Shown one piece after another: positions 18,174-22,026 of a stretch of DNA of 64,000 bases. The DNA lies in assembly GCA_963847445.1 (NCBI GenBank), contig CAWJZV010000018.1, positions 32,001 through 96,000 on the forward strand. The letters run 5' to 3'. The notes under the pieces are model-generated. The model saw only the letters and a list, made by a program, of their open reading frames with translations. It searched no databases and was not told the DNA's origin. Each line of letters begins with the position of its first letter. Positions within the stretch are counted from its first letter, which is position 1. The stretch is from an uncultured delta proteobacterium. Lineage in GTDB: Bacteria; Desulfobacterota; Binatia; UBA9968. A program made the position numbers and the translations under genes.

Positions 18174-18705
18174 TCAATCCAACTGCAACGTCGCCGGCTC
18201 ATTGGCCATGCGCTCGCCCATGCCGACATGCCGCAACCTTTCCCACAAAGCGTCGACTTCCGCCAGCACGGCTGGCGTCGGGACGATGAATATCGATCAA
18301 GTGCGCGATCGGCACCCAACAGGCCCGCCCGGTTAGCCAAAACACTTCCGATCGATTGCCTTCGGGATCGAAGTAGTAGCAGCCCAGAGCGCTGACATGA
18401 TTGACCACGGCATCGATACGCAAGCCCGCTGCAAGCAGTTTTTTGTGCATGATGCGCAGGTCTTCCAGTGTCTCGACACGCAGCGAGATTTGGTTGATCA
18501 ACCGTGAATCGGCGTCCTCCGGCCGGCCGCGGAACAGCGCGATCTCGTGATCGGCCTTTTCCGGATCCGCGCTAAAGAAAACGATACCGGCGCGCCAGTT
18601 CTGCTTGGTGATGCGCATACCCAGGGTATCGCGGTAAAACTCCACCATTTTCTCCAAATCCCGAACGTAAATCCCGACATGTCCCAGCCCAACGACTGCT
18701 GCCAT
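18174..18705 (-). CDS. VOC (glyoxalase/extradiol dioxygenase-like) family protein; frameshift near 18270
   Basis: LGHVGIYVRDLE, DHEIAL and YYFDPEGNRSEV. Confidence 0.85.
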
Positions 18706-18854
18706 GATCCCTCCCAAGCTCTAACCGCGGACATTTTCCCTTAGCTATCTAGCGCCGAAGTGTCAGCGCAATCAAGCCATCGCAGGGACATGGCACAGGT
18801 ATCAGGCCTAGCATGGGGTGGACAATAGCGAACGCTTGCGCTACTTGGTTGGCC

Positions 18855-19601
18855 ATGAAGCCAGAAGAATTTATCGATGAACTGTGGAGCTACGCCGCAG
18901 AAGTGCCGATGGAGCAACATCCCTGGTTCGACGGCATCATAAAGCACCGTTGGACCAAGGAGCAGATCATTCTCGGCGAGGTGCAGCACTATCTGCGGGT
19001 CAGAACCAACCCGATCTTCTTCGGCCATATGGCGATCAATGCCGTGTCGGCGAAGGAATACACCGTGATGGCGACGGTCTTGGAAAACTTCATGGAAGAA
19101 CTCGGCGGCAAGCGCACCCACGTCGACATCATGCTGCAATTTCTCGAAGCAGGCGGCATTTCGCGCGAACAGGCGGACAATGCCGAACCGGCGCCGGGCA
19201 CTTTGGCGGCAATCGAGATGATCGTTGGCTGCTGCCAGCGCCGTTCAGCCCTCGAAGGCGTCGCCATGCTCGCCTTTGTCGAAAGCCAACTCGGCGGCGC
19301 CGGCAAGATTTCCGAAAACGTTTACCGCGAGCTCACTGGCCACTACGGCTTCACGCCCCGCGCGGCCGCTACCTATCAACTCCACGCCGCCCAGGACGAA
19401 GGCCACGGCAGCCGCCAGATCGACGCCATCCGCATGCTTGCCACCGACGAAGCCACGCAAAATAAAATTCGCGCCGCGGTAAAGTTGGGATTGACCGCCT
19501 TCACGCTCGAATGGGACGGCCATGTCCAGGCGATGACCGGCAAAAGAGAGTTCTGGGGCGGCGTTAAGAATTTAAATTTACGCCAACCGAGTGCAGTGTG
19601 A
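18855..19601 (+). CDS. Heme-oxygenase-like diiron (PqqC/TenA/CADD-like) redox enzyme
   Basis: ENFMEELGGKRTH, VES and LHAAQDEGHG diiron-type ligand pattern. Confidence 0.75.
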   Translation: MKPEEFIDELWSYAAEVPMEQHPWFDGIIKHRWTKEQIILGEVQHYLRVRTNPIFFGHMAINAVSAKEYTVMATVLENFMEELGGKRTHVDIMLQFLEAGGISREQADNAEPAPGTLAAIEMIVGCCQRRSALEGVAMLAFVESQLGGAGKISENVYRELTGHYGFTPRAAATYQLHAAQDEGHGSRQIDAIRMLATDEATQNKIRAAVKLGLTAFTLEWDGHVQAMTGKREFWGGVKNLNLRQPSAV

Positions 19602-19765
19602 GATCAGCGGGTAACCTGCGCGGAAAAAGATCAATGGGCTAGGGCTAGCGATGCCCCCATCTCAGATCTTCCCCGAACCGGGGAGAAGTCATGTGCTCCA
19701 AAGGAAGGAAAACCCGCAACCGACTCTCGAAACTCTGACCTTGAACTTTGAACCTAGAACAGCCG

Positions 19766-19987
19766 TTAAATCGGCCACTCCTTCGGCAGATCTTTCCTAA
19801 GCTTTTTGTATTCCGCGTCGTCGCTGTGCTGGGCGCGCAACCGCTTGAGCGCCGCGACGACTTCCTTTTGATCCTGCTTCACCGCGTTGGAGACCATACC
19901 CGTGGTCTCTTCGAAGCCGAGGCTTCAATTGCTGTGTCAGCCGCGCATCCGCTTGAGAATGTACAGATCGTCGTCTTTGCTAGCCAT
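19766..19987 (-). CDS. Putative 73-aa selenoprotein with two Sec residues (UxxxU motif)
   Basis: ATG at 19987 with GAGGTG RBS; reads MASKDDDLYILKRMRG-UGA-HSN-UGA-SLGFEETTGMVSNAVKQDQKEVVAALKRLRAQHSDDAEYKKLRKDLPKEWPI-TAA. UGAs at 19937-19939 and 19925-19927; hairpins follow. Confidence 0.72.
19890..19928 (-). promoter_or_regulatory. Two tandem candidate bacterial SECIS hairpins
   Basis: UUGAAGC-CUCG-GCUUCGA (19928-19911) and GAGACCA-CGGGUA-UGGUCUC (19909-19890). Confidence 0.6.
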
Positions 19988-19998
19988 GTCGGTGCACC

Positions 19999-20419
19999 TC
20001 AATTCGAGATTCCGGAAAAACCAACTTTCTGTGTGGTGATCAGCTCGGTCGCCGTTTCCGGCGCGCCGTCAGCCGTTACAGTGACGCGAATACGCACGAA
20101 AATTCGCCATGCTTCGCCGCGCCATTGGCAGTGAAAAATGACGAAGGCGTTTTCCGTAACCAATCCCGCCGGCTCGTCGCAATGGACGAGAATCGTAAAC
20201 TGCTTGCTTGCCCCCGCCGCCAATTCGAGCGCCGGCGCGAAACCAGTGCTCGGCTGATCTAAATTGGCCATGCGGCAATCGCGCCGAAATCATTGTTAAA
20301 GCAGCCGCGCCAAGATTCTCCAGCTCCCAGAGAATATTCCAACCCGCCGTCATCGCATCGCGCGCGAGCGCCATCTGGCGCAATGCAATTTTCGGTTCGG
20401 TGGTCGATTGCACCGCCAC
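19999..20419 (-). CDS. Hypothetical beta-rich protein; frameshift near 20240
   Basis: Two overlapping ORFs join into one protein (ARLPHGQFRS...ENAFVIF...WRIFVRIRV); tightly coupled to both neighbours. Confidence 0.65.
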
Positions 20420-20422
20420 AGT

Positions 20423-21426
20423 TTACTTAAGCCGGCCCTCTGCGCGCAATTCTTGCTGGGCTATTTTTAGAATGCGATCGTTGATCACTCGGTCCAAGGT
20501 AAAGTTTTTCTCGACCAGCCCGGCGCGAATATCTTCGTCGAGCATCTGCTGAAGACCCGGCAAGGCCACCGACAAGATCGCCCTTGCAAGCCGCCCGAGT
20601 AGAGATCCCAAGCCGCGCTGACGATCTCCGGATCGCCCTTCAGACCGGCATCGAAGCCCGCTTTAATCGCTTCCTTCTTGTTGAACTTGGCCAACTGCAT
20701 GCCCTGGATGTAGGCCTTGAGCATGCGCTTGCTGGTTTCGGGATATTTGTCGAGCACTTCGTTGCGCGTTACGAGAATATTCTGCGGGATCCCCAGCGAT
20801 TCACTCATGTTGCTGATGAGCGAATAGCCGGCGCGCATCAGGCGCACGCCGTCTTCGGGGGAGAACGGCGCCGCCGCGATCATGCCTTTTTCTATCGCCG
20901 CGGCGCGCAGCACTGTGCCGCCGATGGCGCGCAGGATCACGTCTTTATCGGGATTGAGATTGTGTTTGCGTAGAAATGCCTTGACGGCGAATTCCGAATA
21001 GGTTCCAGCGCCGGTGACACCGATCGGCTTGCCGCGCAAATCTTCCACCGTGCGCGTCTGCTTATTGCCGAGCAGGATATAGTTGGTCGTGCTCGAGATA
21101 CAGCCAAGTATCGTCAAGTCGAGTCCGCGCGATTTGCCGCGAAAGATCGCCTGCGCGCCGCCGATGCTGGCAAAATCCACTTCACCGGAAATCAAAGCCG
21201 CGATCGCCGCCGGACCGCCGCCAATCAGGATCGGCTCGATCTGCAACCCCTGCTGCTTGAAATAGCCGCGCGCCAACGCCGCCCGGAACGGAATCTCGCT
21301 ATTCCACGCGAGACTGACAAAGACCATGCGGACATTCTTCTTCTCCTGCGCCGACGCAACCCCAGCGCAAAGTACCGCGACGATAAGGCAAATCCCAATT
21401 TGCAGTGTTTTCCGAACACCCATCAT
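20423..21426 (-). CDS. NitT/TauT-family substrate-binding protein; frameshift near 20585
   Basis: Signal peptide, ARGYFKQQGL, AALISGEVDF and DLRGKPIGVT. Confidence 0.85.
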
Positions 21427-21466: not shown

Positions 21467-21934
21467 TCACCGTTTCGCATACACCGCGGTCTTGCCATTC
21501 TTATCGAACGTCAACACGCTATACGGCTCCGGCTTGCCGCCTTCCATGCCGGGCGACCCGACCGGCATGCCCGGAACGGCGAGGCCAACGATCGGCGGCC
21601 GATCTTTAATAACCTTGTGAATAAGATCCGCCGGCACATGGCCTTCGATGACGTAGCCGTCGATCAAAGCCGTGTGGCAAGCGAAAAGTTGTTGCGGCAC
21701 TCCACGCTGGCGCTTAAGGTCGGTAAACGCGTTGCCAAATAAGACTTTCTTTTCTACTTTGAATCCGTTTTTTTCCAGGTGCACGACCCAGCCATCGCAG
21801 CACTCTCAGGTCGGGGTCTTGTAGACCGTGATAGATTTTACCGCCGATTTCGACGGCGCTTGGCCTAACGTCGGAGCAACCATGAACAAGCTTAAAGCGA
21901 GAACGCAACAAGAGGCAAAACGGTTAATTCGCAT
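21467..21934 (-). CDS. DUF411-family periplasmic metal-binding protein with in-frame UGA (putative Sec) in the CxCC motif
   Basis: GGGAGG RBS, signal peptide, VYKTPT-UGA-ECCDGWVVHL, then ACHTA, EGHVPA and GLAVPGMPVGSPGME. UGA at 21806-21808. Confidence 0.85.
21779..21803 (-). promoter_or_regulatory. Candidate bacterial SECIS hairpin
   Basis: GUGC-U(bulge)-GCGAU-[GGCUGG]-GUCGU-GCAC, starting 2 nt after the UGA. Confidence 0.5.
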
Positions 21935-22026
21935 AGATCCTCCCAGCGCAGAGCAATTTATCAGATACGTTGACATAAATGCGAGCGCTGTTGTAACGAT
22001 TATCAATCTTGTGTAGGAGGCCGGCC

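Follow-up and report, generated by a model that had tools for sequence, protein, structure and literature searches.

An overlooked small protein with two candidate selenocysteines, encoded beside a CADD-like dimetal oxidase gene in uncultured Binatia

We analysed a small gene on the minus strand of a 64,000-nucleotide stretch of DNA from an uncultured member of the Binatia (GenBank assembly GCA_963847445.1, contig CAWJZV010000018.1, positions 32,001 to 96,000; hereafter the window, whose numbering is used throughout). The gene lies at 19766..19987 and is very probably a real gene for an overlooked protein of 73 residues, MASKDDDLYILKRMRG-U-HSN-U-SLGFEETTGMVSN...EWPI, in which two in-frame UGA codons (codons 17 and 21) would both be decoded as selenocysteine (Sec, U). 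From comparisons with related sequences we infer that both residues are inserted by the SelB-dependent route. The account that best explains the observations as a whole, and that is probably correct, is a two-Sec protein whose UGA codons share a single selenocysteine insertion sequence (SECIS) hairpin, which belongs to a family of four-helix proteins, and whose gene forms a module with an upstream gene (c1) and a convergent downstream gene (c0).

A sequence-only reading of this DNA had proposed the frame and its signals, and all of them are read directly on the minus strand. The ribosome-binding site GAGGTG (19995..20000) overlaps the TGA stop (20001-19999) of the upstream gene, and the ATG at 19987 follows it by 7 nt. 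The first UGA (19937..19939) and the second (19925..19927) lie in the context RMRG-U-HSN-U-SLGF, and the frame then runs for 52 further codons to a TAA stop (19768-19766); a perfect 7-bp hairpin is present. UGA is normally a stop codon here, since the upstream gene itself terminates with TGA, 12 nt short of the ATG. Orthologs have purine-rich sequences in the place of GAGGTG, and the same frame, start codon and an upstream GGAGG-like site recur in 48 loci and, in a second set, in 80 loci. Contigs from other public sequencing runs over 19700-20500 show no change at either TGA among the differences listed (14 weaker ones lie outside this listing); those of run X1 span the entire interval and those of run X3 span both TGAs piecewise. 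One contig of 262 nt from a metatranscriptome library (X15; 19887-20148) runs from the 3' end of the upstream gene across the start codon to beyond both TGAs, with the proviso that an RNA library may contain DNA. The other RNA runs (X16-X20) contribute small shares only, X16 as short pieces.

Both UGA codons are conserved among relatives, as the sequence-only reading had anticipated. Using the 73 residues as query, with Cys written for Sec, a six-frame search of 61 related genomes found matches in 49. Two unpublished genomes (G005 and G035) are counted here, and without them the figure is 47 of 59. Exactly two TGAs are present in 49 of the 50 matches, at identities down to 41%, and the fiftieth is cut by a contig end. 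The two-TGA matches span three families and eight genera. A wider scan with one genome per species located 218 loci that encode a relative, and counts over 80 loci below refer to the best 80 of these 218. The pattern G-U-x-x-N-U occurs in 77 of the 80, and the remaining three are L133 (C...U), L117 (C...C) and L100, which is truncated. After removal of duplicates, TGA stands at both sites in 99 of 101 distinct sequences: the first codon is TGA in 99 (TGC or TGT in L133 and L117), and the second in 100 (TGT in L117). Judged by this conservation among relatives, a frame with two TGAs is beyond chance. A histidine next to the first Sec had been singled out as a feature of the site; this does not hold, since H, Y, R, F, N and S are all seen at that position.

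The family is widespread and found mainly in uncultured soil Binatia and Chloroflexota. By depositor label, the best 80 of the 218 loci comprise 25 from Candidatus Binatia, 25 with deltaproteobacterial, Syntrophobacter or Thermodesulfobacteriota names, 20 from Chloroflexota or Limnocylindria and 10 others. Relatives fall into 609 protein clusters by database count. All 120 of the public relatives among those listed are either unnamed or called 'hypothetical protein'.

The sequence on both sides of the UGAs changes in a manner indicative of protein coding. Over the 10 codons before the first UGA, mean entropy at codon positions 1, 2 and 3 is 0.83, 0.45 and 1.30, which bears out the expectation of coding-type conservation 5' of the UGAs, and in the C-terminal part it is 1.01, 0.58 and 1.44. 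When 1.84 billion representative proteins were searched with a hidden Markov model profile, 123 matched, and 85 of these are exactly the 43-residue tail that begins at Met31 (19766-19897 here). This tail is the only open reading frame that translation table 11 yields at this locus, as had been predicted for standard annotation, and the family is mis-annotated everywhere as a 43-residue hypothetical protein. Twenty-eight of the matches were fetched; 22 are full-length homologs, and all 22 have Cys at both Sec positions. Cysteine homologs had been foreseen, and they exist as one CxxxU sequence and one CxxxC sequence among the close relatives and as an entire CxxxC family beyond them. In a joint alignment of Sec and Cys types (A2), neither Sec/Cys column varies, and the same holds for F, T and M of the second helix, one L and the R, P and P of an R..P...P tail. 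Sec/Cys pairing of this kind is the usual comparative criterion for a selenoprotein; it is seen at both sites here and points to Sec at both codons.

An RNA hairpin follows the two codons. The SECIS candidate (19890..19909, minus strand) has a perfectly paired 7-bp stem, GAGACCA/UGGUCUC (GAGACCA at 19909-19903 and TGGTCTC at 19896-19890), which closes the loop CGGGUA (CGGGTA in the DNA, 19902-19897), and its energy alone is -9.2 kcal/mol. The stem begins 15 nt after the second UGA, and the loop starts 22 nt past the second UGA and 34 nt past the first. Among 99 sequences, 81 share an identical stem, 17 have a pair-keeping A-to-G change and 1 has a single mismatch; all 99 have the loop CGGGNA. 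A first hairpin, UUGAAGC-CUCG-GCUUCGA (19911..19928, minus strand, -8.5 kcal/mol), includes the second UGA in its 5' arm and is also conserved at the RNA level, with its codons GGC(+5, +7) and TTC(+8) nearly invariant. We compared the candidate by hand with the bacterial SECIS (bSECIS) constraints of PMC13188914 (Fig. 2 legend), which call for a loop of 3-9 nt, a stem of 4-16 bp, a minimum free energy below -7.5, G in the first two loop positions and a distance of 16-37 nt from the UGA. The element at 19890-19909 satisfies these constraints, with a 6-nt loop, a 7-bp stem, G at loop position 2 followed by another G, and a minimum free energy of -9.2. The spacings of 22 and 34 nt between its apical loop and the two codons are both inside the window of 16-37 nt, so that one element could serve both. 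The first hairpin does not fit the constraints with the first UGA, since its spacing is 15 nt and no G occupies the first two loop positions. A search against Rfam found no match in 19000-21000 at E up to 1. The hairpin at 19890-19909 is most likely one SelB-binding SECIS that would serve both UGAs. The arrangement differs from the bacterial SECIS consensus in that one hairpin is shared by two UGAs 12 nt apart, and in that an extra conserved, non-fitting hairpin that engulfs the second UGA lies in between. If this is correct, the gene would be a natural example in which a single SECIS hairpin programs two UGAs 12 nt apart.

Codon choice in the Sec and Cys forms of the gene points to a constraint that acts on the RNA and accompanies the TGAs, because synonymous sites are frozen in the Sec forms and free in the Cys forms. 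In the 99 Sec-type sequences, the codons GGC(+5), GGC(+7), GAG(+10), ACC(+11), ACG(+12) and GTC(+15) are chosen with an entropy of 0, while other invariant residues use up to five codons (R+47 has an entropy of 2.12). The matching T, V and F residues are likewise invariant in 37 Cys-type genes, yet each is encoded by 2 to 4 codons: ACG, ACT or ACC for the Thr and four codons for the Val. The 20 nt equivalent to the SECIS stretch have a median energy of -3.5 kcal/mol in these 37 genes, compared with -9.2 kcal/mol here.

The protein itself is predicted to be small and helical, and not thioredoxin-like, as the sequence-only reading had supposed. An AlphaFold2 model built with 29 sequences is all-alpha, with helices at 4-21, 25-35, 40-54 and 58-65, and has a predicted local distance difference test (pLDDT) score of 86. 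Both Sec residues lie on helix 4-21, and the model lacks a thioredoxin-like alpha/beta fold, in which the motif would sit at the N-terminus of a helix. The family is marked by an invariant CxxxC/UxxxU pair at the C-terminus of helix 1, a conserved F..T..M pattern in helix 2 and a conserved LP..[WF]P tail. The protein would thus be the Sec form of a small four-helix CxxxC/UxxxU family. No family had been recognised from the sequence, and none was found by search: the 73-residue protein (P0001) has no Pfam or NCBIfam match, with nothing better than E 0.098, and ten Cys homologs have none either. A Foldseek search of the model against the PDB gave nothing significant (best E 0.85), a profile (A1) search of PDB sequences gave nothing below E 0.07, and an ESM Atlas feature search gave no usable match. 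A search for longer fused forms returned two proteins of 133-141 residues only, which probably have mis-called starts.

We regard this as a new selenoprotein family with ordinary decoding that is unusual in its motif and its partner. Table 1 of a 2026 inventory lists 119 selenoprotein families, among them UxxU and UxxxxU entries, with no UxxxU and none that lacks a domain model (PMC13188914). The term 'UxxxU' was not found in the biological literature searched, where supplements, which might list candidates, lay outside the search. The preprint 10.1101/2022.07.06.499078 and the deep-Sep paper (PMC12013277) describe other families in the parts of their text that were available. The closest comparisons are with known two-Sec proteins, namely NF041115 (UxxU, metal-binding), TIGR02605 (FmdB-family, UxxU) and NF045694 (TsoB, UxxxxU; PMC13188914). 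Like these, the protein has two nearby UGA-encoded Sec residues and Cys homologs, and decoding by SelB with a hairpin inside the coding sequence is expected. It differs from them in its UxxxU spacing on a predicted helix, in the absence of any sequence relationship, in a fold that is neither thioredoxin-like nor zinc-ribbon-like, and in having a dimetal oxidase as genomic partner. If confirmed, it would add a family beyond the inventory of 119 (PMC13188914), with an unusual design of two Sec residues one helical turn apart in a non-thioredoxin helical fold.

The two neighbouring genes that would complete the three-gene module are an immunoglobulin (Ig)-like c1 and a CADD-like dimetal oxidase c0. 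The upstream partner c1 (19999..20419, minus strand) encodes about 140 residues with no family assignment and precedes the small gene, in the same orientation, in 79 of 80 loci. Its AlphaFold2 model is an all-beta, eight-strand Ig-like sandwich (pLDDT 95.3), for which Foldseek found generic Ig-like sandwiches only (ASF1, TRAP, ApaG; template-modelling (TM) scores 0.3-0.44). In this assembly, c1 is split into two frames (20069-20419 and 19999-20271) by one extra base near 20240-20244. The extra base is absent from three relatives, and contigs from two other public runs are one base shorter at 20240 and 20244. The frameshift could be an assembly error or a real lesion.

The convergent gene c0 (18813..19601, plus strand) encodes a heme-oxygenase-like dimetal oxidase whose closest relative is CADD/CT610, with a PF14518 match at 2.6e-17. 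A copy at 65-96% identity accompanies the small gene in 72 of 80 loci; of the eight remaining loci, two offer less than 200 nt of downstream sequence. In the 61 related genomes, which are not independent samples, the small gene and c0 are both present in 48 and both absent from 11, the latter including closed genomes with SelB. One discordant genome has the small gene only, 312 nt from a contig end, and another has c0 only. Overall, c0 is gained and lost along with the small gene. Against PDB entries 1rcw and 8va9, c0 scores 4e-14. Like CADD/CT610, it belongs to the heme-oxygenase-like fold family and retains the residues that align with the dimetal ligands E/H/E/H/D/H, a numbering that we take to be that of CADD. 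It differs from CADD in having Phe aligned with the sacrificial Tyr27 and Val with Lys152. We know of no small Sec or Cys partner gene for CADD. At 58.7 bits, c0 is far below the TIGR04305 cut-off of 200 and falls outside the CADD-type self-sacrificing p-aminobenzoate synthases. CADD/CT610 is described, in part of PMC9522330, as a self-sacrificing p-aminobenzoate synthase of Chlamydia whose activity is abolished by Y27F.

The Cys-type relatives are linked to a similar enzyme by a different gene order. Cys-type loci (L142-L221) were recovered from metagenome contigs with a narrower alignment (A3). In 60 of these 80 loci, the small gene sits just upstream, on the same strand, of a gene with zf-C2H2_9 and TENA/PqqC/heme-oxygenase-like regions, with a gap of about 19 nt (39 pairs measured). 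This enzyme matches PDB 4lqx at E 3e-121 and matches c0 at 25-34% identity in 13 loci. The gene for a Ta0938 (PF11494) zinc-binding protein is next in 17 of the 80 loci, and in some loci a ThyX gene is directly upstream of the operon. The Cys and Sec forms belong to the same family, align over their full length and are both linked to a heme-oxygenase-like enzyme, but the Cys form has Cys in place of Sec, no frozen hairpin, a co-directional enzyme gene and no c1. The linkage to the enzyme outlasts changed gene order and deep divergence and therefore argues for a shared function. A complex prediction for a natural Cys-type pair (A6 with the enzyme A7) gave a score of 0.01, compared with a mark of 0.32, which has no bearing on binding either way.

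Two selenols one helical turn apart would make either a redox-active diselenide/diselenol or a metal-holding site for the oxidase. Such a site might re-reduce or protect the O2-activating metal centre of the oxidase, or deliver metal or substrate to it. That the selenol pair is a redox or metal site serving the dimetal oxidase is a tentative proposal. A narrower version, which we consider somewhat doubtful, is that UxxxU is a dedicated selenium cofactor site for an O2-activating dimetal oxidase, acting as a diselenide/diselenol electron shuttle that resists over-oxidation or, through two copies of the protein, as a four-selenolate clamp for a metal or an iron-sulfur-type cluster. Confirmation of the protein would also provide a first lead to a partner for a large uncharacterised branch of CADD/TENA-like dimetal oxidases. 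Under the narrower version, the heme-oxygenase-like oxidase superfamily would gain its first selenoprotein partner. For experiments, the Cys-type relatives are an easy way in.

Several results weigh against this account, some of them on decoding and others on function. The sequence-only reading had asked for the Sec genes of the host. SelA, SelB and SelD are present and clustered at C14:191714-195726, but no whole tRNA-Sec gene (selC) was found in the assembly, which is 91.8% complete, whereas tRNA-Sec was found in all four relatives tested, at 73-77 bits. A 34-nt 3' fragment of selC is present at C12:77569-77602 and is 97% identical to the selC of a relative. Such 3' tRNA fragments can remain after an element integrates into selC. 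In addition, the SelB frame is open for 238 residues only, compared with about 650 in relatives. On the RNA side, compensatory changes had been expected in the hairpin and are missing. RNAalifold predicts both hairpins from 74 sequences, and all changes keep pairing (G-U for A-U, G-U for G-C), but none of the 12 hairpin pairs shows a compensatory double change. The support for the hairpin is therefore its invariance (a frozen sequence with one-sided, pair-keeping changes) together with the Cys-family control, and not covariation. As regards function, c0 is missing within 1.2-4 kb downstream in six loci, among them the Cys/Cys locus L117; c0 is convergent and not co-transcribed with the small gene; no fused form of the small protein was found; and the nearest folds of the model are helix-turn-helix (HTH) domains, which would suit a regulator.

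Other observations on the Sec machinery stand beside these. SelD (C14:194887-195726) contains one in-frame TGA and is a Sec-containing SelD. The segment C14:194650-194787 was flagged alongside the shortened SelB frame. An ARAGORN call of tRNA-SeC at C2:139122-139203 was rejected as a false positive on account of a mismatched acceptor stem and lack of Rfam support. SelB occurs in 56 of the 61 relatives, and its presence was discarded as a marker of genomes that carry the gene because it does not discriminate.

The resemblance to HTH domains is the basis of an alternative in which the protein is a genuine two-Sec protein but acts as a redox- or metal-sensing, HTH-like regulator of the oxidase gene, with the Sec/Cys pair as sensor. 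The top VIA-align neighbours of the model are nearly all HTH proteins at Z 5-6.4 (Sap1, sigma regions, SorC, MntR, DeoR, LysR, GerE), and ESM Atlas gives GerE, Sigma70_r4, HTH_Tnp_1 and HTH_30 at TM 0.55-0.65. The small gene is first in the Cys-type operon, as are many autoregulators, and one Cys homolog has weak sigma-factor matches (E 0.002). However, the tools class all of these scores, up to Z 6.4 and TM 0.65, as a common helical arrangement (Z under 8), and the best Foldseek match has an E of 0.85. The likeness to sigma-70 region 4, GerE and the N-terminal domains of LysR and DeoR is one of a three- to four-helix arrangement, at scores in the chance range for small helical proteins, with no sequence match and no Pfam HTH match. 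Conservation is lowest in the would-be recognition helix (40-54), which in many members is acidic, and net charge has a median of +1 (-11 to +6) in 101 Sec types and of -2 in 26 Cys types. The conserved surface consists instead of the Sec pair, helix 2 and the C-terminal tail. The poor conservation of the recognition helix and the lack of a basic net charge place a role in DNA binding second, and we consider it unlikely.

It is improbable that the small protein is a substrate or scaffold of the oxidase, with one of its residues consumed in trans or its Sec/Cys pair modified in the manner of a ribosomally synthesized and post-translationally modified peptide (RiPP). The tight gene linkage would suit a substrate, as would the presence of Phe in c0 at the position of the sacrificial Tyr27, where the Y27F change abolishes CADD activity in the part of the published account noted above, and of a nearly invariant Tyr (Y60) in the small protein. 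Against it, the predicted structure is a well-folded four-helix domain (pLDDT 86) and not a leader-core peptide, the use of two Sec residues per turnover would be very costly, and no protease, transporter or RiPP recognition element (RRE)-type gene is conserved nearby.

Readings in which the protein contains no Sec at all fare worse than the selenol site, the regulator or the substrate. Expression of the 43-residue tail or a 51-residue form only, with non-coding conservation upstream, or a broken gene, is very improbable: table 11 yields the tail alone, every database record is a 'hypothetical protein' tail and whole selC was not found in this assembly, but the upstream codons have a coding pattern, a start codon and a ribosome site, uninterrupted CxxxC homologs span the whole length, Met31 lies inside the conserved hairpin, and the two stops coincide in position across 99 distinct sequences that represent at least two phyla, so the gene is not decaying. 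Equally hard to credit is that the UGAs are read as a standard amino acid (near-cognate Trp, Cys or Arg, or a code in which TGA is Trp or Gly), for although eight public gene calls have W at both sites, the homologs carry Cys and not Trp there, the upstream gene uses TGA as its stop 12 nt ahead of this frame, the SECIS-like hairpin is frozen in TGA forms only, and SelA, SelB and SelD are present. The contigs behind the eight calls (P0126-P0131, P0133 and P0135) are about 1-1.6 kb long, and a gene caller that reads TGA as Trp most likely explains the W. Three further public records (P0132, P0159 and P0042) read 'CAVD(G/A)AIE(G/A)' over the site. This string is what the +1 frame of the same DNA encodes, implying paired indels or a frame 'correction'.

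Other genes flank the module. A glyoxalase/VOC gene (18199-18717, minus strand) lies past c0. A gene for an NMT1/THI5-like (SsuA-type) substrate-binding protein (20485-21426, minus strand) lies upstream of c1 in this genus, in 20 of 48 loci; a binding protein of the thiamine-pyrimidine type might be linked to a TENA-like enzyme.

The window also contains a second, unannotated selenoprotein candidate. A DUF411 (PF04214) gene (21467-22006, minus strand) is split by an in-frame TGA (21808-21806) at the first Cys of a Cys-rich motif (VYKTPT-U-ECC-DGW). DUF411 is not in Table 1 of PMC13188914, and the DUF411 candidate has no NCBIfam match. The TGA is kept in 15 of 15 matches, from 14 of 31 related genomes, at identities down to 49%. 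The presence of this second candidate in the same window suggests that the selenoproteome of these lineages is under-counted.

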